NCBI GenBank assembly: GCA_963718575.1
Contig: OY970358.1
Location: forward strand, 642,172-706,171
DNA length: 64,000 bases
Reading direction: 5' to 3'
Origin: an uncultured bacterium
GTDB lineage: Bacteria; Patescibacteriota; Minisyncoccia; UBA6257; 2-01-FULL-56-20
How positions within the stretch are numbered: position 1 is the first letter of the stretch; each line of letters opens with the position of its first letter. The notes beneath the pieces are model-generated. The model saw nothing but the letters and a program-made list of their open reading frames with translations. It was not told the DNA's origin and made no database searches. This document shows, piece after piece, positions 21,881-62,990 of the stretch. The position numbers and the translations under genes are program-made.

Positions 21881-22411
21881 AACAAGAGACCAAACGGCTT
21901 TCCAGTATTCATCATCGCGGCGCTGATCATCGCCGGGGCGTTGGTGGTGTACTTCGAATTCATCGTTCCCGCGTACACCAATCTTGAGACCGTCAAAGGC
22001 CAGGAAGAGAGCGAGCAGATGCTCTATGCAAATGAAACTCAGATCGTGACCCAGGTGAAGAACCTTCTTAGCAGCTATCAGAGCGACGCATCGTCCAGCC
22101 AGTCGGTGGCCATGGCGTTGCCGGTGGGTCCGGACGTCTCGGGCGCGCTCGCGCAGATCTATGGTATTGCGGCGAACACGGGAGTGACGATCCAGGGAAC
22201 GGGAGTTTCAACCCGCGCGATACAAGCGGTCGGCGGCGCAGGCGAATATTGCGAGCGTCCCGAGCAGCCAGCTTGTGAATGCCGCCGCTGCCGGATCGAT
22301 CGTCAAGCCGACGGGTACGGTATCGTTCCAGGTCGACGGGATCGGGCAGTTATGAGGCATTCAAGAGCATTCCTTAGGCCCTCGAGACGAACATCCGGAT
22401 ATTCAACGTGA
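21877..22411 (+). pseudogene. pilO: PilO-like protein disrupted by at least 2 frameshifts
   Basis: MKQETKR is followed in another frame by the TM segment FPVFIIAALIIAGALVVYFEF.. (ORF 21941-22411). The C-terminus is garbled. Confidence 0.4.
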
Positions 22412-22533
22412 CCGCGATCTCCTTGCAACCGGTGACGGTTTCACTCGCTATAAAGGACCAGACGGCAAATCAGGATATTTTCAATTACACCATAACGGTC
22501 GTAACCTATTATCAGTCTCCATAAAACAACCTC

Positions 22534-22835
22534 ATGGCGATCATCGTTGAAGAAAGCGAAAAAAAGAGCAATCTGTTCGGCATCGTCGGATGGCTGGTCT
22601 TTTTGGCGATCGCCGGCGCGGCAGTCTATTATCTGTTTTTTGCGCAACCGCAGCTGGTGACCATCCCCGCATCGGGGACGCTTGGCTACGATCGCGCCCA
22701 TCGCGCAGATATCCTTGCAACCGCAGACGGTGGTGCAGGGTCCGGAGTTTTCTGGCGCTGACCTCCACGATCGCATTGCCAACGCCGCAAGGCCCGGCGC
22801 CGGTCGGGCGGACCGATCCGTTCGTCGCACCCTAG
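22534..22835 (+). CDS. Small membrane pilus-assembly-like protein, split over three frames (frameshifts)
   Basis: TM helix LFGIVGWLVFLAIAGAAVYYLFF. The downstream frames continue to ...RTDPFVAP with stop at 22833-35. Confidence 0.3.
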
Positions 22836-22955
22836 CATTATATTGCCACACCCTTTCTGAGGGACGCGTCGCGGTCTGCTGACCGCGCGCTTACTCTCGC
22901 CGCCTGCGCGGATCCGAGATGCCCCCAGAAAGGGTGTGGCAATATAATGCTAGGG
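22830..22955 (+). repeat. Hairpin repeat element copy A: 30-bp perfect inverted repeat enclosing a conserved core
   Basis: Arms 22830-22859 and 22926-22955 (CTAGCATTATATTGCCACACCCTTTCTG / reverse complement). The core begins GGGACGCGTCGCGGTCTGCTGACCGCGCGCTTAC, shared with copies at 57017, 58009, 62509 and 62662. Confidence 0.7.
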
Positions 22956-23010
22956 GACAAAAATAACTTTATAAATAAAATTATTTTGCCCAGCGTGGTA
23001 GAATAGAGAC

Positions 23011-24738
23011 ATGACGTAGCGATGAACTTCTCCAACAACTGCAGAGTCGGGGATTGATCACCGAGGCGATCGCCGCGCGGCTTAAGCGCGATGCGATCGT
23101 GGGAAACGAATCGGCGGAAGATATCATCGAGCGCGAGCAGATCGTGCCCGATGAACAGCTTGCGTCGCTTAAGAGCGAGCTGCTCAAGGTTCCTTATAAG
23201 AAGATAGATCCGAACGCGCTGACCGCGGAGCTGATGGGCGTCGTGCCCGAAGAGACCGCGCGGACGTATCATGCCGTTCCGATCAGCCTGCAGGACGGAT
23301 CTGCTCGTCGTCGGCATGCTGCATCCGGACGATCCAAAGGCGCAGGAAGCGATGAAGTTCATCGCGCGGCAGAATCATTTCAATCTCGGCGTTTATCTTG
23401 TCTCGTACAAGGACCTTGCAGGCGGCGCTCCGGAAATATTCTCCCGTATCGTGCGGAAGTGGAGGCGGCCGTGCGATCGCTGAACTTAAAAGACGGATCG
23501 GACGGCCAGCGAGGCGATCGAACTCGAAGGAGGCGACAGCGCCGATGCGCCGATCATCAAGATCGTCGCGGATACATTCAAGGAGGCGGTGCTCAATAAG
23601 GCGTCGGACGTGCATATCGAGCCGCAGCAAAAATCGTTGCGCATCCGCTTGCGCATTGACGGCGATCTGCGCGAAGTGGCGTCGATGCCGGTGGAGCTTG
23701 CCCAGCCGATCACGTCGCGCATCAAGGTCATTTCCAGTTTGAAGATCGACGAGAATCGCGTGCCGCAGGACGGCCGCTTCCGCGCAAAACTGTTCGATCG
23801 CGATATCGACTTCCGCGTCGCCACGTTTCCGACGCCGCTCGGCGAGAAGATCGCCATCCGCGTGCTCGATCCCACGACCGGCCTCAAGAATTTCGAGCAG
23901 CTTCGATCTTCTCGACGCCCACGCGCGAGATCATCAAAGAAGGATTGGCAAAAGCCGTTCGGCATGGTGCTCATCACCGGCCCCACCGGTTCCGGAAAGA
24001 CGACGACGCTCTACGCATTTTTGCAATCAATGAACACCGAGGATGTGAACATCGTCTCGCTCGAAGACCCGGTGGAATATTTCGTTTCAGGCATTAACCA
24101 GTCGCAGGTGCGTCCGGAGATCGGCTACGACTTCGCATCGGGATTGCGACAGATCTTGCGCCAGGACCCGGACATCATCATGGTCGGTGAGATCCGCGAC
24201 AACGAGACCGCCGGCCTTGCGGTGCAAGCCGCGCTCACCGGCCATGTCGTGCTTTCCACACTGCACACCAACAACAGCGCGGGCGTCATCCCGCGGCTCA
24301 TCGATATGAAGGTGGAGCCGTTCCTTATCCCGGTATCGCTCAGCCTTGATGATCGCCCAGCGTCTCGTGGGCGTGCTCTGCCCGAACTGTAAAGCGCCCG
24401 AATCGGCGCCGGCGGAGGTGCAGAAGATCATCACGCGCGCGCTTGCCGACCTTCCGCCGGATATCACTGCGGATTTCAAGGCGCCGTATCAGATCTATCA
24501 CGCAAAAGGATGTGCCACGTGCAAGGGCCGCGGCGTTCTCGGCCGCACCGGCATCTTCGAGGCATTCGCCGTCACAAAGGAGATCGAGGATATCGTGAGC
24601 GCCGGCGTCACCACGCAAAAGATCACGGCGCAGGCGAAAGCGCAGGGGATGATCACATTACGCCAGGATGGGATCGTGAAGGCGTTAAGGGGAATCGTAT
24701 CGATCGAAGAGATCATTCGGGAAACGGAGGAGGCGTAG
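23011..24738 (+). pseudogene. pilB: Type IV pilus assembly ATPase PilB/GspE, fragmented by about 6-7 frameshifts
   Basis: Pieces recognizable in three frames: N-domain ELLQQLQSRGLITEAIAARL; Walker A GPTGSGKTTT; Asp/His boxes; C-terminal Cys4 motif CPNCK..CATCKGRG. The frameshift sits right after ATG 23011. Confidence 0.7.
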
Positions 24739-52482: not shown

Positions 52483-52554
52483 GCCGACGTAGCTCAGTGG
52501 TAGAGCAGGGCTTTCATAAGGCCAAGGTCGCAGGTTCGATCCCTGCCGTCGGCA
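52483..52554 (+). tRNA. tRNA-Met(CAT), elongator or Ile2-type
   Basis: Acceptor GCCGACG/CGTCGGC fully paired, D-arm GCTC AGTGGTA GAGC, anticodon loop TTCATAA, T-arm GCAGG TTCGATC CCTGC. Confidence 0.8.
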
Positions 52555-53611
52555 CAAAAAGAAATAGGCATCGCTGTCTCGCTACCGCGTAGGAACGCTC
52601 AAACGCCCGACAGCGATGCCTATTTCTTTTTGTGCAAGTGATGAAGGCGGGAGGATAAAGATAAAAAAAGCCGCTACCTTTGGTAGCGGCCAGTGTTGTC
52701 TTCTGAGGGTGAAAGAATCGATAGCGCGGGTGTTTTGGCGGTTTCCCCGCGAGCTCGTCGGCGTAATCAAGGATCGCTGCGATGTAGAAGTTGTCGTGGT
52801 TGTACGCAAAGAGCGCGCGGCGATGCGATTCCTCGGTTGTTCCCCATTGTGCCCGGGAGAGATAATTGGCGATGCTGCAGATCGCATCGTCGTTGCCGAA
52901 AATGTCCGGGGGATCGTCGTCATCTCCGTCATCGCTACAATGTACGGCAAGTTTGGCATAGGAGGTCGGTTCGAACTGCGGCAGGCCGAACGCTCCGGTG
53001 GCCGATCCTTTGATGGAAAAAAGTTCATCAAGGTCGCTGTTTTGAAAGATAGTAAGGAAAGTGATCAGCTGCTCCTCTGACCATCCGGGTTTTTGGAAAT
53101 CCGGCCGCATCACCGCAAGCGTGTAGAGTCTTACGACGACCGGCCACTTTCCCATGCTGTCCGGTCTTTGTCCCCACTGCGTTTCAATGTTCAGCACGCC
53201 GTCGATGACTTCACGCGGAATGCCGAATTTTTTTTCCGCGTAATCGAGCGCCACTGCGTTATTTTCCAAAAATCTTCGGCTTTGTTCTTTCGACCATACG
53301 CTGAAGACGTAGTCGTAGTCATATCGCTTTGGCTTTGGATTGCGCTGCGGAGCGGCGGGATTCGGGCTCGGGGGATGCTTGAACATGGTCGGGTCGATCG
53401 CAAAGCGTTTATCGTTCGTGATTGTCTCCCCATATTCTCCAAGCTTTTGTTTGATGTGCGCAATGATGAGTTTTTCGCGCACGACAGGATCGAACGGCGC
53501 GGTATGTTTCGTGGTGGCGGTGTTTTTCGCATGCGGAGCGGCGGCCGCGAGCGAAGGCCCAAACAGTGCGGTGAACAACATGCAGATGAGCATCGGGGTT
53601 TTCACGGACAA
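52514..53611 (-). CDS. Membrane-bound lytic murein transglycosylase B-like protein (C-terminal stop apparently lost)
   Basis: Signal peptide and an SLT/MltB-like core (NIETQWG...GAFGLPQFEPTSY...YNHDNFY). The ORF has no stop until 52514, so it reads through the hairpin element and into tRNA-Met. Confidence 0.65.
   Translation of the reverse strand: MSVKTPMLICMLFTALFGPSLAAAAPHAKNTATTKHTAPFDPVVREKLIIAHIKQKLGEYGETITNDKRFAIDPTMFKHPPSPNPAAPQRNPKPKRYDYDYVFSVWSKEQSRRFLENNAVALDYAEKKFGIPREVIDGVLNIETQWGQRPDSMGKWPVVVRLYTLAVMRPDFQKPGWSEEQLITFLTIFQNSDLDELFSIKGSATGAFGLPQFEPTSYAKLAVHCSDDGDDDDPPDIFGNDDAICSIANYLSRAQWGTTEESHRRALFAYNHDNFYIAAILDYADELAGKPPKHPRYRFFHPQKTTLAATKGSGFFYLYPPAFITCTKRNRHRCRAFERSYAVARQRCLFLFVPTAGIEPATLAL
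52555..52632. repeat. 24-bp perfect inverted repeat with a 30-nt loop (hairpin element, looser relative of copies A-E)
   Basis: CAAAAAGAAATAGGCATCGCTGTC ... GACAGCGATGCCTATTTCTTTTTG. The loop contains GGAACGC as in cores C and E. It lies inside the C-terminal reading frame of the MltB-like ORF. Confidence 0.5.
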
Positions 53612-53679
53612 GCCTCCTCGGTTGGAATGTTCAGATGTAAAAATTGCCCTCCCTTCACTTTAGCATTACAATCTTTCTT

Positions 53680-54810
53680 ATGGAATATAAGATCCCTCTC
53701 GACGAGCAGAACCGGATTTTGGCGACGGTCGACAAGCGTACGGACGCGGAGGCGGCGCGGATCAAGCGGTATCTCGCCATGCCGGACCTTTCGCGCACGC
53801 CGGGCAATCCGCTCTATGAGATCGTGCAAGCGGCGATGGAAACGAAATCGCTCAAGGGGTTTGATAACATCATCATCCCGGAGATCGTTCCGGCTGATAT
53901 CAATTTCGATCTTTTCGATTTTGCGCCCGATCATCCGGCGCGGTCAAAGTCCGATACCTATTACGCGGACGACAAAAATATTTTGCGCACACACGACACG
54001 GTGATGTGGTACTACTACACGCAATTGCCGGAGGTCAAAGCGCGCCTCGCGCGCCGCGAAAAGCTTGGCGTCGTCTGCTACGGCAAGGTCTATCGCAAGG
54101 ACGAGATTGACCGCAAGCACATGAACATTTTCCACCAATTCGGCGGATGGTATATGACGCCCGCGGACACCGCGCCGCTCACGATCGACGATTTGCGCAA
54201 CGCGCTTACCGAGATCGTCCGCGCGCTCTTTGGCGCCGACGTAAAGTATCGTTTTCTCGACGACACATTCCCGTATACCGATCCGTCATTGCAGATCGAG
54301 GTTGAAGTGAACGGCCAGTGGATCGAGATCATGGGCGGGGGAATGACGAAGCAGAGCGTGTTCAAAAAATTCGGCGTCGAAGGATATAGCGCGTGGGCGT
54401 TCGGCTTCGGTCTCGAACGGCTTGCGATCATCAGCATGGAATTGCCGGACATCCGCCTGCTCTGGTCCGCCGACGCGCGCGTCAAAAAGCAGCTGCATAT
54501 GGGCACGAAATTTGTGGAGGTCAGCAAATACCCACCGGTCATCCGCGATATTTCTTTTATTGTTCCAAAAACATTCGCGCCGAACGATTATTTCGATCTC
54601 GTGCGCGATATCGCGGGCGATTTAGTGGAGCAAGTGGAGTTGATCGACGAATATGCAAATGATGAAAAATTTGGTGCGGATAGAAAAAGCTATGCATACC
54701 GCATCATCTATCGCTCAAGCGAGCGGACGTTGACGAACGAAGAGGTAGATGTGCTTCACAAGAAGATCGAGGAGGAAACGGCGAAAGAGTTTGGCGCGGT
54801 GGTGCGGTAG
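53680..54810 (+). CDS. pheS: Phenylalanine--tRNA ligase alpha-type catalytic domain fused to a C-terminal FDX-ACB anticodon-binding domain (mitochondrial-type monomeric PheRS architecture)
   Basis: Class II motifs (HPAR, FPYTDPSLQIEVEV, GLERLAI) plus a C-terminal FDX-ACB-like segment (KYPPVIRDISFIV...YRIIYRSSERTLTNEEVD). No pheT is adjacent. Confidence 0.7.
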   Translation: MEYKIPLDEQNRILATVDKRTDAEAARIKRYLAMPDLSRTPGNPLYEIVQAAMETKSLKGFDNIIIPEIVPADINFDLFDFAPDHPARSKSDTYYADDKNILRTHDTVMWYYYTQLPEVKARLARREKLGVVCYGKVYRKDEIDRKHMNIFHQFGGWYMTPADTAPLTIDDLRNALTEIVRALFGADVKYRFLDDTFPYTDPSLQIEVEVNGQWIEIMGGGMTKQSVFKKFGVEGYSAWAFGFGLERLAIISMELPDIRLLWSADARVKKQLHMGTKFVEVSKYPPVIRDISFIVPKTFAPNDYFDLVRDIAGDLVEQVELIDEYANDEKFGADRKSYAYRIIYRSSERTLTNEEVDVLHKKIEEETAKEFGAVVR

Positions 54811-54826
54811 GGTACAATGTAAGTAA

Positions 54827-56284
54827 ATGAAGAAGATCGCCGTTCCCGAGGAGGTCGTTGCGGTATCGAAGACGCTTGCCGAAGCGGGGTTCGAGGCATA
54901 CCTCGTTGGTGGATGCGTGCGCGACATGCTGCTCGGGCGCGAGCCGAAGGACTGGGATGTGGCGACGGATGCAAAGCCGGCGGAGGTGCAGAAGCTTTTT
55001 CCGGACAGCGTGTACGAGAATGATTTTGGCACGGTGGGGGTTAAGACGGAATCGGAGGATCCGCGGGTGAAGATCATAGAGGTGACGACATACCGCATCG
55101 AAAGTGAATATACCGACAAGCGGCATCCGGACGCGGTGAAGTTCGCCTCTGATATAGAGGACGATCTTTCGCGCCGCGATTTCACGGTGAATGCGCTCGC
55201 GATGAATTTGAAAGGCCAGGTGATCGATCCGTTCGGCGGCGAACGCGATATCAAAGACCGGACGATTCGCACCGTCGGCGCGCCGGAAGAGCGGTTCAGC
55301 GAGGATGCCCTGCGTCTGATGCGCGCGGTGCGTTTTTCTGTGGAGCTCGATTTTGAGATCGAGATGAACACGCGCCGCGCGATCGTAAAATTGGCAGGCG
55401 GATTGGAAGAGATCGCAAAGGAGCGCGTGCGCGACGAACTCGTCAAAATTCTGATGACGCCGAACGCGGCGAAGGGGATCGTCCTCCTCGAAGAGCTCGA
55501 TCTGCTCCGCTATGTTTTGCCGGAGCTTCGCGACGGCATCGGCGTCGGGCAGAACAAGCATCACATTTATACCGTCTTTGAGCACAACGTCCGCGCACTC
55601 GATTATACCGCGGGCGAAAATTATTCTCTGCCGGTGCGCATGGCGGCGCTTCTCCACGACGTCGGTAAGCCGAAGGTGAAAAGCGGCGACGGGCCGGATT
55701 CGACGTTCTATCAGCACGAATATATCGGCGCGCGCATCGCGGTCAAGATGCTCGACCGCCTGCGGTTCTCGAAAGACTTTGTGGAACAGGTGGGGCACTT
55801 GGTCCGTTCGCACATGTTCTATTACGATACCGGCGTGATCTCTCCCGCGGGCGTGCGGCGCTTCGTGGTGCGCGTCGGGCCGGAGAACATCGATGATCTA
55901 TTAAAAGTTCGTGAAGCGGATCGCATCGGCAGCGGCGTCAAAAAAGCGGTGCCGTACCGCCTGCGCCATTTGCTCTTTATGATAGACAAGGTCAAGCGCG
56001 ATCCGCTCTCGCCGAAGATGCTCGCGTTGCGCGGCGACGATCTCATGCCACTGCTCAACCTTCCGCAATCGCGTCGCGTCGGCTGGATCCTAAACGCGCT
56101 CATGGAAGAGGTGATCGATGACCCAAAGAAGAACGATAAAAAATATCTCACAAAGCGTGCAAAGGAATTGAACAAACTGGACGATAAGGAATTACAGGAA
56201 TTGTTTGCGAGTGCCCAGCGGAAAAAGCGCGATGCGGAAGGGGAGATGGACGAGGATATTAAAAAGAAGCATCACGTGAAATAA
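54827..56284 (+). CDS. cca: CCA tRNA nucleotidyltransferase (class II NTase with HD domain)
   Basis: GGCVRD...DWD head motifs and an HD motif LLHDVGKP. Confidence 0.85.
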   Translation: MKKIAVPEEVVAVSKTLAEAGFEAYLVGGCVRDMLLGREPKDWDVATDAKPAEVQKLFPDSVYENDFGTVGVKTESEDPRVKIIEVTTYRIESEYTDKRHPDAVKFASDIEDDLSRRDFTVNALAMNLKGQVIDPFGGERDIKDRTIRTVGAPEERFSEDALRLMRAVRFSVELDFEIEMNTRRAIVKLAGGLEEIAKERVRDELVKILMTPNAAKGIVLLEELDLLRYVLPELRDGIGVGQNKHHIYTVFEHNVRALDYTAGENYSLPVRMAALLHDVGKPKVKSGDGPDSTFYQHEYIGARIAVKMLDRLRFSKDFVEQVGHLVRSHMFYYDTGVISPAGVRRFVVRVGPENIDDLLKVREADRIGSGVKKAVPYRLRHLLFMIDKVKRDPLSPKMLALRGDDLMPLLNLPQSRRVGWILNALMEEVIDDPKKNDKKYLTKRAKELNKLDDKELQELFASAQRKKRDAEGEMDEDIKKKHHVK

Positions 56285-56735: not shown

Positions 56736-56945
56736 AGCCCCCCCTATATGTCTTTCAAGATTGACCCTGATATAGAGCGCTCTTTTTCTATTCTCAAAAA
56801 GAAATCAAAATTATATATTGAATATAATGATGGTACATTGCGAGAAGCGGGACAACTAAAAAATGAACAGTCCGCGATTGCAGCGTAGCGCTTTTGATAA
56901 GGTTGAATTATTTCCCCAAACGCGGTTAAATACGTTGGTATTCTA

Positions 56946-57016
56946 CGGGCCGTAGTATACCGGTAGTACGTGCGATTCGGGTTCGTAAAGACCGGGTTCG
57001 ATTCCCGGCGGCCCGA
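56946..57016 (+). tRNA. tRNA-Pro(CGG)
   Basis: C1-G72 acceptor CGGGCCG/CGGCCCG, anticodon loop TTCGGGT, T-arm CCGGG TTCGATT CCCGG and discriminator A. Confidence 0.8.
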
Positions 57017-57130
57017 CAACAACAAAAAGAATATACCCCAAAGGGACGCGTCGCGGTCTGCTGACCGCGCGCTTACGCTCGGCACCTTCGTGCCTCCGCG
57101 AAACCCTTTTGGGGTATATTCTTTTTGTTG
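57017..57130 (+). repeat. Hairpin repeat element copy B (27-bp IR with one bulge + conserved core), abutting the tRNA-Pro 3' end
   Basis: Arms ACAACAAAAAGAATATACCCCAAAGGG / CCCTTTTGGGGTATATTCTTTTTGTTG. Core ACGCGTCGCGGTCTGCTGACCGCGCGCTTACGCTCGGCACCTTCGTGCCTCCGCGAAA. Confidence 0.7.
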
Positions 57131-57283
57131 CCTGTTTGTTCGATGGGAATCGAACGGCGGAGGGGGTCGGGGAACCGCGGTTGGTTCCCCGTGCTGGAGG
57201 CATTCGGAACCGAGGGTTCCGAAAAACGAGCGGAGCGAGTGTGTGAGCTTCCCGGCGGCCCGACTGATAAAATATAATTTCGA

Positions 57284-57321
57284 ATAAAAATGCGCCGGGC
57301 TTCCATGGGGAAGCCCGGCGC
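57284..57321 (-). terminator. Strong hairpin terminator (13-bp stem) on the minus strand
   Basis: GCGCCGGGCTTCC atgg GGAAGCCCGGCGC followed by a T-run on the minus strand. Confidence 0.5.
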
Positions 57322-57330
57322 GGGCAAGGA

Positions 57331-57500
57331 TCAAAGACAGCTTCTTTTCGGAAAGGTCTTCCCTTGTTTTTTAGCTTTATGGATGTAAGAAACGACATAC
57401 AGATATGCAGACAACGATGTCACCGCTACGAGAATAACAAACGCGGAGACGGCTTTTTGTAGCCAGAGAGAAAGCTCAGGCGGGAGATGAAATGGGTGCA
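57331..57500 (-). CDS. Small hypothetical membrane protein (56 aa)
   Basis: ATG 57500 with SD AAGGAGG; one TM helix (AFVILVAVTSLSAYLYVV); the ORF extends to 57660. Confidence 0.3.
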
Positions 57501-57602
57501 TATTGGAGGCCTCCTTCGGGCGGCTTCCTATAGAATGCCACAACCATGGGGAAAGTAAATGTACTGGATTTGGGTGGCTTTTGGCGCGCCACCATAGAGC
57601 TA

Positions 57603-57630
57603 TTGACATCCTTTTCGAGCCGAGTATACT
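57603..57630 (+). promoter_or_regulatory. Strong sigma70-type promoter TTGACA-16-TATACT (candidate 23S-5S rRNA operon promoter)
   Basis: TTGACA at 57603-08 and TATACT at 57625-30. A hairpin + T8 terminator-like structure follows at about 57712-57742. Confidence 0.45.
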
Positions 57631-58008
57631 TACTCCTAAGATACGAATGGTAAAGAACACTAATCTTTCACAGCAAGACGGCTGACCGCGCGTATTTTAC
57701 GCGATGGACCAAGCCGCTCTGCGGCCGATTTTTTTTCTGGGCATAGTATCTTCAAATGCTGCGTTGGTCGCCTCTTGGGCGACGGCGGCATCTGGCAGTG
57801 TTATTTAAAATCATCTGCCGATTTGGTGGAACTCCGAATTGTAGAGTCGGAGGACATAATATGGAGACTCTGTGTCACTAATTTAGGTTCTGCGATCTCC
57901 GCTCGGTGACGAGCGAGGAAAGCCGGGCCCGTGCATACGCATATGTACGCAATTTCTCGTGGCAAGTCAGAGTCAAATCAGTGATGAAATTTATTTTATC
58001 ACTGGCAA

Positions 58009-58115
58009 GTGTTGTACACCCCTTTGAAGGGCGTCGCGGAGGCACGAAGGTGCCGAGCGCCAAGGCGGCCGGTCAGCAGGCCGGAACGCCGTCCCTGCAA
58101 AGGGGTGTACAACAC
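58009..58115 (+). repeat. Hairpin repeat element copy C (core inverted relative to B/D), immediately 5' of the 23S rRNA
   Basis: Arms GTGTTGTACACCCCTTTGAAGGG / CCCTGCAAAGGGGTGTACAACAC (1 mismatch). Core CGTCGCGGAGGCACGAAGGTGCCGAGCGCCAAGGCGGCCGGTCAGCAGGCCGGAACGCCGTC. Confidence 0.7.
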
Positions 58116-58689
58116 GAGCAAGTCAGCATTGGGATGGTTGGCAAATAAGGGCGAACGGTGGATGCCTAGACTAGAAAAGGCGATGAAGGACGTGGCGTAG
58201 CAACGAAATGCCTCGGGGAGATGCGTAGCAATCTACGATCCGGGGATGTCCGAATGGGGAAACCTAGTTGAGTAACCCTCAATTGTTTCGACGCAAGTCG
58301 ATTCGCGTACCCGCTGAAGTAAAACATTCCAGTAAGCGGAGGAAAAAAGAACAAATCAGTTATTCCCCAAGTATCGGCGAGAGAACAGGGAACAGCCCAA
58401 ACTAAGGTTGTGATTTATTTCGCAACGTTAGGGTATAGTCTAAAGACGCTGTTTAGTAAATAACGTAGCGCGCTCCTTAAAAAAGTGCGTTTCGTTATTT
58501 GCTATTCGTGAAGGAGTAAAAAAATCATATGTTAGCCAAAGTCGTCTGGAAAGCGACGCCAGAGCGGGTGATAGCCCCCTAGGCGAAAACATTTGGTCTC
58601 CTTAGTTTTTTAACTTGAGTACTTCGGAGTAAAACAGTTCCGGAGGAATATGCCTGTACTATCAGGTAAGGCTAAATACTTTTCTAGAT

Positions 58690-58726
<37 letters not shown>

Positions 58727-60442
58727 CAGGCCGGTGAGGCCGTTGAAATAGAACCTGAAACCGTTTGTCTACAAGGAATTGAACCACGAACGGCTTCCCG
58801 CAAGGGAGGACGAGTGGAACAATGTGCCTATTGAAGAATGATCCAACGACTTATTTTGTGTTGCTTGTCTAAGCGCGCATAGCGTGAAGGCGTAGCGAAA
58901 GCGAGTCTGAATAGGGCGCATGTCTCCCCTTAAAAGGAGATCGCAGCACAAGATAGACCCGAAGCGTTATGAGCTTGCCTTGGCCAGGGTGAACTCCCGA
59001 GAAATCGGGAGGGAGGCCCGAACCGGTTGATTGTTCAAAATCTTCGGATGAGCTGAGGTAAGGAGTGAAAAGCTAATCGAATAACGTAATAGCTGGTTCT
59101 CTCCGAAACAGTTTTAGGACTGGCGGCAAGAGTTCCTCTTGGGGGTAGAGCACTGGATGATCGTTACAGGGGGAAACTCCGAACGATCAATCAAACTCCG
59201 AATACCGAGAGTCAAGATCTTGCTAGTTAGACTGCGGGGGCTAAGCTCCGTGGTCGCGAGGGGAAGAGCCCAGATCGTCATCTAAGGTCCCTAAATTCAT
59301 GCTAAGTGTTAAAGGTAGTCATAACCCATAGACAGATAGGAGGTTGGCTTAGAGGTAGCCATCCTTTAAAGAGTGTGTAACAACTCACTATTCGACGGGT
59401 CGTGGCGCCGAAAATGTACCGGGGCTAAGCATGATACCGAAGATACGAATGTATACTTCCTTCGGGAGGTGTACGTGGTAGGAGAGCATTTCGGCCTGCA
59501 GTGAAGGTCAACCCGCGAGGGTGACTGGAGCGGCCGGAAGAGAAAATGTTGGAATGAGTAACCACAATCCCAATGAGAAATTGGAACCCCGAAAATCCAA
59601 GGTTTCCGTGGCACTGGCAATCAACCACGGGTTAGGCGGTCCTAAGGCGATGGCGAAAGCCGCAGTCGATGGGAAGCTGGTTAATACTCCAGCCCGGCCG
59701 TACGATCATAACTAGAGGACAAAGGAGATAAGCAGATGTGCCTTATTGGTTTGGCATTCTTTGTACTAAGCTCACGCGTGTACCGAGAGAAGGTTAAGAA
59801 TTTACTTAGTCGACATCTGTGAAGTGCCTTTCGAGAAAAATCTGGCCAAATCGAGCGTAAGGTCTCCGTACCGTAAACCGACACTGGTGGATAGGGCGAG
59901 TAGCCCAAGGGGAACGAGTGATTCATCGTTAAGGAACTAGGCAAAATAGCGGCCGTAAGTTAGCAATAAGGCCTGCCCTCGCAAGAGGGCCGCAGCTAAA
60001 GAATCTCTGGCGACTGTTTACCAAAAACACAGCTCCCTGCCAACTCGCAAGAGGATGTATAGGGGGTGACACCTGACCGATGCGAGAAGGTCAAGATTGG
60101 GGGTGGTATGGAGCAATCTGTACTGCTCACTGATTCAAGCCCTCGTCAATGTCAGCGATAACTATGAACAACATTGTAGTTGTAAAATTTGGCTATATGC
60201 TGGAATAACCGTTAGTATCCGGCGCTACTCGAAAGAGTGACAATGCGTCCGGTGCGGTCAATCAGCAGGAAAGGCCTCGATAATTATTATTGAGGAATCC
60301 TCAGAGACTACACGCCAGACCCTAAAATATTTAGGGATGATATAGTCCGAACTATATGGCGACATATAGAGTTGTTCGCGAAGTGCGAGCAGAATAACAT
60401 ACTTGAATCGTTCTAAGGTAGCGCAATTCCTTTTCGGGTAAG

Positions 60443-61168
60443 GTAACTTGCCCCTTTACGCCGCGAGGTGTATTGAAACAGCTGGCTCATAACGGTGAAG
60501 TCCTAAATTTTAGATAAATTTAATGTCTGATTGTTTAGGATAATACCGTGGGAAGTCCATTGATTAAAAATCAAAATGACCCCGTAACGACTTCGTCCTG
60601 CAAGGGACGTAATGAGGTGGTTTTGACCCCTCATTATACGCCGGCTTCTTCAGAAGGAGAGAGAAGAAACATAGCGGAATATATAACCGGTTATGTTGAT
60701 GGTGAAGGATGTTTTACGGTTACGTTCAATACAAAACCAAAAGCTTTGCTTGAATGGGAATTCAGGCCGAGTTTTTCGGTAAGTCAGAACGAAGATCGCC
60801 GTCAGGTTCTCGATCTCATGAGAAACTATTTCGGATGTGGTTTTATCCGCCGTGATTGGAGTGATAAGACCGTAAAGTTCGAAGTACGAGATCATAAGAA
60901 TTTGATGACAAAAATTATTCCTCATTTCGAGAAGTTTCCTCTTATTTCGGCAAAGAACAATGATTTCAAATTATTCAAAACAATTTGTCGCATTGTCGAC
61001 TCGCAGAAACATTTAAGTAAGGCTGGATTTATAGAAGTTATAAATCTTGCTTATCAAATGAATGGCTCTGGTAAAAGAAAAAGAGCAAAAGAAGAAATCA
61101 TCCAATCTCTTTTTGAAGATAAAGATATAGTCTGATCCTCACCGTAAGGTGAGATAACACGGATGAAG
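60443..61168 (+). mobile_element. Intron in 23S rRNA (domain IV region, E. coli about 1917-1931) carrying a LAGLIDADG homing endonuclease ORF; probably group I
   Basis: Exon junction GGGTAAG | GTTCCGAAGCGCACGAAAGG restores the conserved 23S sequence. The junction is ambiguous by 1 nt. Confidence 0.6.
60548..61135 (+). CDS. LAGLIDADG homing endonuclease (intron-encoded)
   Basis: ITGYVDGEGCF motif; the start codon is uncertain (GTG 60548 or a later non-ATG). Confidence 0.8.
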   Translation: MGSPLIKNQNDPVTTSSCKGRNEVVLTPHYTPASSEGERRNIAEYITGYVDGEGCFTVTFNTKPKALLEWEFRPSFSVSQNEDRRQVLDLMRNYFGCGFIRRDWSDKTVKFEVRDHKNLMTKIIPHFEKFPLISAKNNDFKLFKTICRIVDSQKHLSKAGFIEVINLAYQMNGSGKRKRAKEEIIQSLFEDKDIV

Positions 61169-61817
61169 TTCCGAAGCGCACGAAAGGTGTAACGACCGGA
61201 GAACTGTCTCAACGATGAGCTCGGTGAAAATGCGATTCCCGTGAAGACGCGGGATACCTGCAGCGGGACGAAAAGACCCCGGAAGCTTTACTGCAGCTTG
61301 GCATTGATTTTAGAGTTTTACTACGTAGCGTAGTGGTGAGGATTTGAAGCGTCGCTCTCGGGTGACGTGGATCCGACAATGAAACAGCCATTTTTAAAAC
61401 TTTAACGTCTAACTGGTAACGAACCCTTCGGGGAAGCGTTGCTAAGACAGTGCTTGGTAGGCAGTTTAAATGGGGCGTTTTCCTCCAAAAGAGTAACGGA
61501 GGAGTTTATTAAGGTCAGCTTAGCCCGGATGGAAATCGGGCAGGACGTGCAAACGCAAAAGCTGGCTTGACTGCAAGTCCTACAAGACGAGCAGGTGCGA
61601 AAGCAGAAGTTAGTGACCCGACGGCCCTTCATAGAAAGGCCGGAGACACCGGATAAAAGCTACTCCGGGGATAACAGGCTAGTATTGTCCGAGCGTCCCT
61701 AGCGACGACAATGCTCGGCACCTCGATGTCGGCTCGCCACAGCGCGGGGGTGTAGAAGCTCCCAAGCGTTTGGCTGTTCGCCAATTAAAGTGGCACGTGA
61801 GCTGGGTTCAGACCGTC

Positions 61818-62202
61818 AACAAGATAACCCAATCGAAGGTAACGAAGCGAAAGCGGAAACTGTTAAAAAAGAAGAAACGGCGGCCCAGGAAAGCAATTTC
61901 CTGGAGTGAAGCCTTGCATTCAAGTCTGTCATTCGTCCGACAAATCGCAAGGCAAGAAAATCGACTCATATCGGTGAAGTCCTTACTTGGTTTAGACCTG
62001 AACCATGAGGATAATACCGAGGGAAGTCGTGCATGGAGTTATGGAATTTATTTTATGCATTGACCCCTTAGAGACTTAGCGCGTAAGCGCTGGAGTCCGG
62101 CAATCGTGCCGGGCTAACACGTCGGTCATCTTACTAAATTCATTTTTAGCGAGATGGTGGTATAGTCCAACCCGCCAGTAATGGCGATGAAGAATAAGTT
62201 GC
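61818..62202 (+). mobile_element. Second, ORF-less intron in 23S rRNA (E. coli about 2593-2596 region, the I-CreI-type site)
   Basis: Exons GAGCTGGGTTCAGACCGTC | GTGAGACAGGTCGGTCTCTATCTGC are contiguous in the conserved 23S sequence. Shares the motif AGGATAATACCG(T/A)GGGAAGTC with intron 1. Confidence 0.5.
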
Positions 62203-62343
62203 GTGAGACAGGTCGGTCTCTATCTGCTGCAGGCGTGAAATACTTGAGGGGAGTTGACCTTAGTACGAGAGGACTGGGTTGAACATACCTCTGGTCTACC
62301 GGCTTTGCTACCAAGTGAATTGCCGGGTAGCTATGTATGGAAG

Positions 62344-62376
<33 letters not shown>

Positions 62377-62508
62377 CACCCCAAGATTAGGTATGCGTGA
62401 TTTCGTCATAGACTATGACGTTGATAGGCGCTCGGTGTAAGAACAGCAATGTTTTTAGCCAAGGCGTACTAATAATCCCGCCAACCATCCCAATGCTGAC
62501 TTGCATTC

Positions 62509-62614
62509 GATCTGTGTTTGTACTTTGCGGGGACGTGTCACGGTCTGCTGACCGCGCGCTTACGCTCGGCATCTTCGTGCCTTCGCGAAGCCCCTCAAAG
62601 CACAAACACAGATC
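62509..62614 (+). repeat. Hairpin repeat element copy D, immediately 3' of the 23S rRNA
   Basis: Arms GATCTGTGTTTGTACTTTGCGGGG / CCCCTCAAAGCACAAACACAGATC (2 mismatches). Core ACGTGTCACGGTCTGCTGACCGCGCGCTTACGCTCGGCATCTTCGTGCCTTCGCGAAG. Confidence 0.7.
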
Positions 62615-62661
62615 TCATTTCTGATCTACAATCAGAAATCCAAACAAAAAGGCGGCGGGGC

Positions 62662-62778
62662 GCTGCTCATATTTTTGTGTTTCGAAGAGTGTCTCGGAGC
62701 CGCGAAGGCGGCGAGAGCCAAGGCGGCCAGCCAGTAGGCTGGAACGCCGTCCCTGAGAAATATAAAAATATGAGCAGC
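62662..62778 (+). repeat. Hairpin repeat element copy E (core inverted), in the 23S-5S spacer
   Basis: Arms GCTGCTCATATTTTTGTGTTTC / GAAATATAAAAATATGAGCAGC (2 G.U positions). The core is related to C with compensatory stem changes. Confidence 0.65.
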
Positions 62779-62795
62779 ACCACGAACGGCTTTTT

Positions 62796-62916
62796 GATGT
62801 CGGTGCTTCATTCGGGCGTGCCCCACCTCTTCCCATTCCGAACAGAGAAGTGAAAGCGTCCCAATCCCATGATACTTGCGGGTTCGCCTGCGGGGAAAGT
62901 AGGATGTGCCGACATC
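62796..62916 (+). rRNA. rrf: 5S ribosomal RNA
   Basis: CCCACCTCTTCCCATTCCGAACAGAGAAGTGAAAGC...GGGAAAGTAGGATGTGCCGAC; terminal helix GTCGGTG/GTGCCGAC. Confidence 0.85.
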
Positions 62917-62945
62917 AAAGTGCCGTTAAAGATAATTGATAAAAA

Positions 62946-62990
62946 GAAAGACGCTGCGCATTAATTTGCGTGGCGTCTTTTTGTTTTGCG
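62946..62990. terminator. Bidirectional terminator between 5S rRNA and the convergent gene
   Basis: AAAGACGC ... GCGTCTTT stem flanked by A-run and T-run. Confidence 0.5.

Follow-up and report, generated by a model that had tools for sequence, protein, structure and literature searches.

A dispersed family of gene-end hairpins with a conserved three-way-junction tip and locus-specific stems in uncultured Paceibacteria

What kind of element keeps its centre and lets its ends vary? The question is raised by a 64,000-nt stretch of a metagenomic contig from an uncultured Paceibacteria bacterium of the candidate phyla radiation (hereafter the window), in which five dispersed hairpins carry one shared core on stems that are different in every copy. 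A sequence-only reading of the window had proposed that such a pattern reflects selection for a fold, that it belongs to no described class of element, and that it could represent a small RNA or RNase III substrate, a core inserted into the loops of pre-existing hairpins, or a protein-binding palindrome. Here we describe the family to which the five hairpins belong and weigh what it may be.

Hairpins in the window and their relatives

We searched for the family with a degenerate pattern of the core and with a covariance model, R1, built from relatives. The window holds exactly five matches to R1, copies A to E, which score 59.6-104.6 bits (E 1e-13 to 1e-25) against 15.6 bits for the runner-up, and a 22-nt word of the core occurs three times where 0.00 occurrences are expected. 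All five lie at, or within a few bases of, the positions at which they had been read by eye. In each of them a core of 59-62 nt sits atop a near-perfect, copy-specific stem of 23-34 bp, whose arms remain complementary (86-97%) when the coordinates are re-checked. The core runs forward in A, B and D and is reverse-complemented in C and E, which confirms from the sequence what had been claimed.

Copy A (22830-22955, plus strand; 87.8 bits) has 34-nt arms at 22830-22863 and 22922-22955 that are 97% complementary and enclose a 59-nt three-way junction at 22864-22921; a TAG codon that ends an upstream open frame (22833-22835) lies within its left arm. Copy B (57020-57130, plus strand; 104.6 bits) starts 3 nt after the gene for tRNA-Pro(CGG), which occupies 56946-57017 of the plus strand and has no encoded CCA. 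Its 26-nt arms at 57020-57045 and 57105-57130 (96% complementary) flank a core at 57046-57104. The basal arms have an A-tract/stem/T-tract layout, with CAACAAAAAGA / TCTTTTTGTTG as the basal stem and TTCTTTTTGTTGCCTGTTTGTT as the end of the copy, and a T-rich run extends over 57117-57139; a terminator scan at this copy returned inner fragments only.

The other three copies accompany the rRNA genes. The 23S gene (58135-62489 in the Rfam scan) is framed by a processing stem that we read from the sequence, its 5′ strand (58118-58141, plus strand) pairing with its 3′ strand (62481-62504, plus strand). Copy C (58001-58123, minus strand; 67.7 bits) lies in the 23S leader, reversed with respect to the rRNA transcript, and ends 2 nt before the 5′ strand of this stem; it has a core of the 62-nt type, and its arms (58001-58031 and 58093-58123) are 87% complementary overall and perfectly so over 58009-58026 and 58098-58115. 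Copy D (62509-62614, plus strand; 84.0 bits), with arms at 62509-62532 and 62591-62614 (92%), starts 4 nt past the processing stem in the forward orientation. Copy E (62656-62784, minus strand; 59.6 bits), again with the 62-nt core type and with arms at 62656-62683 and 62757-62784 (86%), runs up to the first base of the stem from which 5S is processed (62785-62803 / 62909-62927). D and E both lie inside the 23S-5S unit, upstream of its canonical short terminator, which follows the 5S gene at 62946-62985; another such terminator is found at 57292-57321.

A sixth hairpin, F (52552-52635, plus strand), is also present where it had been placed. It overlaps the last 4 nt of a tRNA-Met gene, and its arms (52552-52578 and 52609-52635) are 27 bp long and 100% complementary. 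F had been taken for a looser relative of the five. It shares their architecture but scores 12.2 bits (E 0.6) against R1 and bears a separate cap, CGCGTAGGAACGC, of a type that is also found in L023 and L086; its membership as a diverged copy was ruled out on these grounds.

The core recurs well beyond the window. The degenerate pattern matched 68 stretches in a species-representative genome collection, nearly all of them in bins labelled Candidatus Paceibacterota, Parcubacteria, Minisyncoccia, Patescibacteria or 'uncultured bacterium', with up to ten copies per bin. Four matches, in Streptomyces, Kineosporiaceae, Sulfopaludibacter and Gemmatimonadales, came without complementary arms and were dropped as chance matches. 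In 529 kb of fetched loci, R1 identified 81 copies from about 22 Paceibacteria/Parcubacteria genome bins, and the core pattern had no match in 2.9 million viral contigs. The strain of the window is also found at 99.8-99.97% identity in JGI, ENA and Logan assemblies of peat and soil samples, and the sequences in question (L001-L005) show zero differences from the window in the hairpins, which makes them uninformative about strain polymorphism. Three of these contigs (L002, L003 and L004) end at or near hairpins, a fragmentation that we attribute to the hairpin element itself.

A scan of the window against Rfam 15 at gathering thresholds returned only rRNA, tRNA and a group I intron, and no match on a hairpin. 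Relaxed scans, at E<=10 over 56900-58200 (copies B and C and the X element described below) and at E<=1 over five related loci, left both the hairpins and X without a match. Nor did we find a description of a junction-capped hairpin in the literature that we searched, in keeping with the view that no described class fits; the element is apparently undescribed. TIGR arrays, which are known from bacteria of the candidate phyla radiation, were considered and ruled out: they are tandem arrays, whereas the hairpins here are dispersed and single.

Fold and covariation of the junction

Each of the five window copies is predicted to fold as RNA into one and the same three-way junction, with z-scores between -6.6 and -12.8. 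In the predicted fold, a basal helix P1 leads through GGGAC into P2, through CUNAC into P3 and through A-N-N back into P1. P2 is predicted to contain a bulged U and a UGCU-type tetraloop, and P3 to consist of 3 bp, a UC/UCC internal loop, 5 bp and a CUNC tetraloop. The junction module is 59-66 nt long across the family.

The helices covary. When 38 copies are aligned without gaps, 96.6% of P2 is paired and 7 of its 10 pairs have changed on both sides, pair 49:71 of P3 alternates between G-C and U-A, and pairs 54:65 and 56:63 alternate between G-C and C-G and between A-U and G-C. At least 18 different compensated P2 stems occur, and the compensatory differences between the cores of C and E that had been pointed out beforehand are correct as read from the sequence. 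In the alignment of all 81 copies, which was fitted to the covariance model, 95% of the cells are paired and 27 of 31 pairs have changed on both sides; none of 500 shuffles reaches the observed value, and slid controls are 33-61% paired. These results support a fold under constraint, as the sequence-only reading had argued.

The covariation is of a particular kind. Family-wide, helix mismatches on the sense strand comprise 34 G.U and 53 A.C, and pairs that alternate between G-C and A-U do so with no G.U intermediates. Such a lack of G.U excess is unusual for a selected RNA helix, although it is not proof of a role as DNA. The G-T mismatches in the arms of copy E, once put forward as a sign of a plus-strand RNA, are real, but the argument built on them fails across the family.

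We also considered self-cleavage. No small self-cleaving ribozyme model in Rfam matched the hairpins, and comparison by eye with the hammerhead, twister, pistol and HDV cores yielded no match. The junction strands (AC / CUNAC / A-N-N) lack the CUGANGA...GAAA of the hammerhead, and any cleavage site at the gene end would be 25 bp from the junction.

Gene ends, orthologous sites and exchange of cores

The copies sit just behind genes, tRNAs and rRNAs, a placement already suspected from the window and now supported by the family. The element's forward strand corresponds to the sense strand of the gene before it: the end of a co-oriented ORF, tRNA or 23S gene abuts the left arm in 44 copies, and a gene end is found at the right arm only in 5. 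The distance from gene end to junction is nearly constant, with medians of 27 nt for ORFs, 25.5 nt for tRNAs and 28 nt for the 23S stem. Upstream genes include those for EF-Tu (tuf; five genomes), ATP synthase gamma (atpG; four), DnaB (four), EF-G (fusA), GroEL (groEL), YchF, L7/L12 (rplL), PNPase and RNase J, and copies also follow tRNAs and the 23S 3′ end (seven genomes). In L028 and L015, two opposite copies lie in a single 8-kb locus, each behind its own gene, and the strand of negative GC skew carries 9 of 37 copies. The copies thus follow the direction of transcription and not that of replication, and a replication-linked orientation was ruled out.

Some placements fit plain termination less well. 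Copies D and E precede the terminator of the 23S-5S unit, and further copies lie downstream of fusA and atpG, genes whose downstream neighbours are, in most bacteria, transcribed together with them, so that these positions would be operon-internal. A processing or protective role is accordingly likelier than plain termination for D, E and the fusA and atpG copies, and for C too. Stems of 20 or more base pairs, of any sequence, are what RNase III-type enzymes need, and the arms are of that length (about 20 bp or more, near-perfect), those in the window being 24-34 nt long and 86-97% complementary. A T-run is found on the 3′ side in 18 of 71 copies, as against 3 of 71 on the 5′ side (7 or more in 9), which leaves 75% of copies without a U-run.

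Stems across the family are 23-46 bp long. The median arm is 33 nt in an extension alignment of 77 copies that includes decayed outer flanks and counts 2472 matches and 328 mismatches. Non-orthologous copies have unrelated stem sequences and copy-specific outer ends, so the contrast with classic mobile repeats that had been drawn from the window, with ends that vary around a conserved centre, holds throughout the family. Arms are shared only between orthologous loci, and then with compensatory differences; the sole exception is a pair of tRNA loci of one genome (L013 and L030) with identical arms. The left arm usually takes in the stop codon and last codons of the upstream gene, and the right arm or flank is their inverted repeat; in L065 the arms pair at 46 of 46 bp and include nine codons, and L023 carries a decayed inverted copy of the EF-Tu C-terminus. 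That arms always arise by inverted duplication of the target is not general, since those of L049 bear no relation to the ORF before them. The fetched loci contain 65 inverted repeats whose exact arms reach at least 18 nt; 47 of these carry the junction and 18 carry short recurring loops, namely GTAGGAAC (F, L023 and L086), ATTCTTAT, TACTCGGAAGGG and AGATTAA. Long locus-specific stems with exchangeable tips are thus general in these genomes, the three-way junction being the commonest tip.

Orthologous sites in relatives hold the same kind of hairpin, a plain terminator or nothing. Orthologous copies, present in 2-7 genomes, keep the core and have changed their arms compensatorily. This is seen for copy C in L071 and L034, and copy D has orthologues in L043, L025, L008, L018, L058 and L063, with TTTGTAC/GCACAAA in the window corresponding to TGAGTGC/GCACTCA in L025. 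Copy E has orthologues in L008 and L063, and a differently capped hairpin is found at its site in L025 and L043; the position of copy C in L088 is occupied by a long inverted repeat that encloses a tRNA-like gene. Between L028 and L031, the arms are about 50% identical and the core differs only in P3b.

At the tRNA-Pro site, L089 has a plain terminator, CAACACAAAAAGACCCATC-ACGC-GATGGGTCTTTTTGTGTT, that is orthologous to the basal stem of copy B: its own basal stem, CAACA(A)CAAAAAGA / TCTTTTTGT, is homologous to CAACAACAAAAAGA.../...TCTTTTTGTTG of the window. L088 has another plain terminator at this site, and L093 a junction with an enlarged P3. The fusA site holds a canonical terminator in L061 as opposed to a capped hairpin in three other genomes. 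At ychF, L028 and L062 each have an element, the two differing in core type and having unrelated arms, whereas nothing occupies the site in L056 or in L073, which retains only an 8-bp inverted repeat around the stop codon. Since orthologous sites carry either form, capped hairpins and ordinary terminators are interchangeable at a site, and the change may have been a gain or a loss of the cap. An orthologous hairpin lacking the core, which had been named beforehand as a check, is thus found for copy B in L089, with the same basal stem, and L088 and L061 likewise have plain terminators at the tRNA-Pro and fusA sites. Entry of the core into the loop of a pre-existing hairpin would not be general, as the orf294 site is filled in L049 and empty, without any hairpin, in L073 and L031 (12-nt or overlapping spacer).

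The cores resemble one another across loci as much as across genomes. Those of L031, L055 and L035 are 100% identical at unrelated loci. Mean core identity is 0.727 between paralogues within a genome and 0.723 between orthologues across genomes, and the nearest match to a core is a paralogue 23 times and an orthologue 16 times. At the atpG site of L014, a core of that genome's own AT-rich 62-nt type sits in arms that match L055 in their inner part. For comparison, the tuf genes of these genomes differ at synonymous sites in about half of the codons, by our reading. Judged from the sequences, this pattern would fit gene conversion or exchange, strong selection on a trans-acting sequence, or mobility.

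Copy B belongs to a larger arrangement. It opens a 246-nt composite set between two copies of the final 16 nt of the tRNA-Pro gene, the direct repeat TTCCCGGCGGCCCGAC at 57002-57017 and 57248-57263. The remainder, which we call the X element (57131-57263, plus strand), consists of a T-rich patch, GGGAATCGAAC (57145-57155, plus strand; the reverse complement of the T-loop and T-stem 3′ strand of tRNA-Pro), a conserved multi-hairpin body and the tRNA 3′-end copy at 57248-57263; in its predicted fold, the two tRNA-derived ends of X are paired. The same layout recurs behind tRNA-Leu, Arg, Met and Glu in the genome bins, sometimes in tandem, with tRNA-end repeats of 14-23 nt in L013, L050, L024, L015, L045, L038 and L007. 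A scan of metagenomes with an X motif found 54 loci; in 31 of 58 occurrences X follows a tRNA at a distance of 65-240 nt, and the tRNA-end repeat is present in 18 of these 31 tRNA-linked copies. Between tRNA and X there may be no hairpin, a plain terminator, an F-type cap, another cap or a three-way junction. This variation indicates that X is a separate element and that the junction hairpin occupies the position of the tRNA's terminator. The composite shares with tRNA-gene integrative elements the direct repeat of the tRNA 3′ end but lacks their integrase and cargo, the insert being only about 230 nt. The motif scan yielded no full-length autonomous version, and ten ORFs next to tRNA-linked copies contain no integrase, transposase or recombinase domain.

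Possible roles and comparison with known systems

We tentatively favour the reading that each element is its locus's own 3′-end hairpin, a terminator or processing stem that works in the sense RNA, and that the conserved apical module serves as a recognition handle. The hairpins would form the 3′ ends of individual transcription units, the base of each stem being the end of the upstream gene, and the element would act in cis within the sense transcript. The stem would need pairing only, which would let its sequence differ from locus to locus, and might be a terminator at some loci and a double-stranded processing or protective stem within operons and the rRNA precursor at others. The conserved junction would offer a specific handle for a factor: a putative protein or RNase III-type enzyme may read the cap and act about 2-2.5 helical turns below it. 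The active form would be RNA rather than DNA, and the near-perfect arms, reaching into the last codons or the tRNA T-arm, may be kept so by hairpin-templated DNA copying. An orientation that follows transcription favours a role as RNA, and the reading builds further on the covarying fold, the steady placement at gene ends, the conservation at orthologous sites, the exchange with plain terminators there and the T-runs on the 3′ side. Several observations speak against it: the helices show no wobble signature, 75% of copies are without a U-run, copies C and E and their orthologues are reversed with respect to the rRNA transcript yet conserved, and identical cores at unrelated loci and in diverged genomes, when at least 18 alternative P2 stems exist, could reflect mobility or gene conversion rather than a function in cis.

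Those identical cores in unrelated stems, together with the strictly Watson-Crick covariation without G.U excess, keep alive a reading at the level of DNA, which we nonetheless hold to be rather unlikely. The core would be a small selfish or recombination-active module that lodges in the tips of existing terminator or processing hairpins, or is copied from one tip to another, and folds as single-stranded DNA or as a cruciform, in arms that belong to the host and are extended and perfected by hairpin-templated (template-switch) copying. Such copying would suit arms that are perfect up to 46 of 46 bp and right arms that are inverted gene ends (L065, L023 and the tRNA loci). A mobile or converting core would likewise suit the excess of nearest paralogues over nearest orthologues, the L014 core of its own genome's type in L055-like inner arms, the presence and absence of the element at orthologous sites, including the unrelated ychF occupants of L028 and L062, and the terminator of L089 that already has the basal stem of B. 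But orientation follows the adjacent gene and not the local strand majority or GC skew, ORF-adjacent copies show neither target-site duplication nor conserved ends, and neither an integrase or transposase beside the tRNA-linked copies nor a viral carrier came to light in the searches described above. Arm-sharing pairs, moreover, are all orthologous except L013/L030, and copies have persisted at the same sites across genomes as far apart as the tuf comparison indicates. A stronger version, in which the 59-66 nt junction propagates itself by colonising, or being copied between, the apical loops of hairpins through gene conversion or an RNA- or DNA-based mechanism, seems to us unlikely. If it were true, this would be a mobile element that keeps its centre and takes its self-extending arms from the host, built the other way round from every described MITE and REP; the host would tolerate its spread, since a module closed on itself does not stop the hairpin from working.

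Two further accounts stay with RNA. The junction and part of the stem might be excised from highly expressed transcripts as an abundant small RNA, about 70-100 nt long, that works in trans; RNase III would process the long stems, as it does in rRNA. Stems of at least 20 bp with free sequence, cores that stay identical across unrelated loci and diverged genomes in the manner of multi-copy RNA genes, the position downstream of tuf, rRNA, tRNAs and further genes with strong expression, and the inverted repeat of L088, which indicates that such stems can frame an RNA product, are all consistent with this account. We regard it as improbable all the same, given that the reversed copies C and E would yield the complement, that a single genome contains many compensated variants of P2 and P3, that plain terminators replace the element at orthologous sites, and that no Rfam RNA is similar. 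The simplest account, ordinary Rho-independent terminators in which the large loop is a neutral passenger and the core has no function, is the one to which we give least credence. It would explain the A-rich left and T-rich right basal arms of many copies, among them B with its TTCTTTTTGTTGCCTGTTTGTT end, the canonical terminators at orthologous sites, and the promoter-like -10 boxes that we read in the sequence directly downstream of several copies. It is at odds with a U-run in only 25% of copies, with D and E inside a 23S-5S unit that has its own canonical terminator, with a core far better conserved than the arms at orthologous sites (L028 versus L031), and with the existence of canonical short terminators in the same genome. 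The three explanations offered at the outset, small RNA or RNase III substrate, loop-inserting core and protein-binding palindrome, have in this way been narrowed but not told apart.

The candidate phyla radiation comprises a large share of bacterial diversity, and almost nothing is known of how its members end, process and stabilise their transcripts. The element marks the 3′ ends of the most highly expressed genes, of tRNAs and of rRNA, and its shape is conserved over many species. Should a nuclease or terminator factor use the cap as its handle, the element would represent a lineage-specific way of punctuating transcripts; should the cap be a module that spreads between hairpin tips, it would represent a new architecture for a mobile element. 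On either reading, a covariance model is ready for annotating these genomes.

Among known systems, integron attC sites and the sso of rolling-circle plasmids resemble the hairpins as folded single strands that depend on orientation and owe their identity to shape more than to stem sequence, attC also in lying 3′ of ORFs. By contrast, attC sites have outer R''/R' boxes (GTTRRRY), cassette arrays and an adjacent integrase, whereas the hairpins here have unique ends and are dispersed behind housekeeping genes; the sso is located on plasmids, unlike the present element. Neisseria Correia elements and other MITEs are similarly small, dispersed, non-coding and able to form hairpins in mRNA, and the hairpins of Correia elements serve as substrates for RNase III and can also function as terminators. 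A MITE, though, is bounded by conserved terminal inverted repeats and has target-site duplications. In the present family every copy has ends of its own, and no duplication accompanies the ORF-adjacent copies, the longest direct repeats that flank them (6-11 nt) being at chance level; flanking repeats of 14-23 nt are confined to tRNA-linked copies, where they are part of the X composite.

Intrinsic terminators share the position right after stop codons and tRNA ends. Their loops are short (3-8 nt) in contrast to the 59-66 nt conserved junction, and several copies sit where read-through would be required, as in the 23S-5S spacer and downstream of fusA and atpG. The RNase III processing stems of rRNA and tRNA are likewise long, free in sequence and abutting mature RNA ends, and three of the window copies (C, D and E) adjoin the stems of 23S and 5S. 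We know of no bacterial RNase III that reads a branched cap. The near-constant distance of about 25-28 nt from cap to gene end recalls, by analogy, the AGNN tetraloop ruler of yeast Rnt1p, in which the site of cleavage is measured from the cap.

The closest parallel in distribution is the REP/BIME family of proteobacteria, which is also dispersed, extragenic and hairpin-forming, with many copies per genome at gene 3′ ends and between cistrons, where it stabilises the upstream mRNA or terminates transcription. A REP has a conserved palindrome of 20-40 nt with a GTAG/CGTC head that is read by a RAYT transposase. Such a head is absent from the arm ends of the hairpins, and no RAYT was seen among the ORFs scanned in the 8-kb loci; here the stem varies and the branched tip is conserved. 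Dispersed hairpins at gene ends are already known, and what appears to be new is this inverted pattern of conservation, here in a lineage-wide family.

An element behind tRNA genes

Directly downstream of the capped hairpin that follows tRNA-Pro (copy B), the window carries a separate element, X (57131-57263). X elements of this kind, found behind tRNA genes of many species of tRNA, also occur in other fetched loci (L007, L013, L015, L024, L038, L045, L050, and L074-L127). X starts with the reverse complement of its own tRNA's T-loop and T-stem 3′ strand, continues through a conserved multi-hairpin body, GGGGTCGG-hairpin-CCGTGTAGGAGG...GGAACCGAGGGTTCC-GAAAGCGCAG-hairpin-GAGCAGTGAG, and ends by repeating the tRNA 3′ terminus directly over 14-23 nt. 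X had no match in Rfam when we scanned window 56900-58200 (E<=10) and five related loci (E<=1), and no recombinase was found among ten ORFs flanking the tRNA-linked copies.

At two loci of one contig, L013:3725-3882 and L030:6350-6507, the hairpin arms, the core, and the X body behind two different tRNA genes are the same in sequence. Among the arm-sharing pairs of fetched loci, this is the sole instance of arms common to non-orthologous loci, and it suggests that the entire composite was recently duplicated, converted, or moved.

Other caps and an enlarged junction

Hairpin F (52552-52635), directly 3′ of tRNA-Met, bears a distinct conserved cap, CNCGTAGGAACGNG, which recurs in the related loci L023 (3196-3284) and L086; its reverse complement forms a hairpin within the X bodies of L050 and L086. 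Additional recurring hairpin caps are ATTCTTAT, TACTCGGAAGGG, and AGATTAA. In a tRNA-Pro hairpin of another relative (L093:7457-7640), helix P3 is much enlarged, giving a core of ~105 nt, which shows that the three-way-junction module can accommodate expansions.

The 23S rRNA gene and its upstream region

Within the 23S rRNA gene (58135-62489; 4355 nt) are a group I intron (60156-60369) and an ORF for a LAGLIDADG endonuclease (60548-61135); the window has no 16S gene upstream of the 23S gene. The 23S leader of the related locus L088 has, at the position of copy C (L088:3860-4330, minus strand), a 23-bp inverted repeat around a tRNA-like gene, which itself bears an insertion.

Window 57603-57735 includes a near-consensus promoter (TTGACA-16-TATACT, match 11/12) and, ~85 nt past it, a small terminator, GCCGCTCTGCGGC plus T7; together they could specify a candidate small RNA of ~100 nt. 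This segment is 76% conserved in L088, where it adjoins the 23S gene.

Genes near the capped hairpins

Since a minus-strand small ORF of ~40 codons (57380-57502), preceded by a GGAGG ribosome-binding site, runs into a canonical terminator (57292-57321), ordinary terminators are present alongside the capped hairpins. Around copy A, genes resembling those for pili or type II secretion (21941-24392), with an MshEN domain and a GspE-like ATPase, are broken across several frames, including the area of the ORF ending at copy A, which suggests frameshifts that reflect either pseudogenes or assembly indels.

The window's tRNA-Pro and tRNA-Met genes lack an encoded CCA, which fits the presence of a CCA-adding enzyme (54827-56284). 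It adjoins a phenylalanyl-tRNA synthetase (53644-54810), whose single chain joins a class II core to an FDX-ACB anticodon-binding domain, an arrangement of the mitochondrial type.
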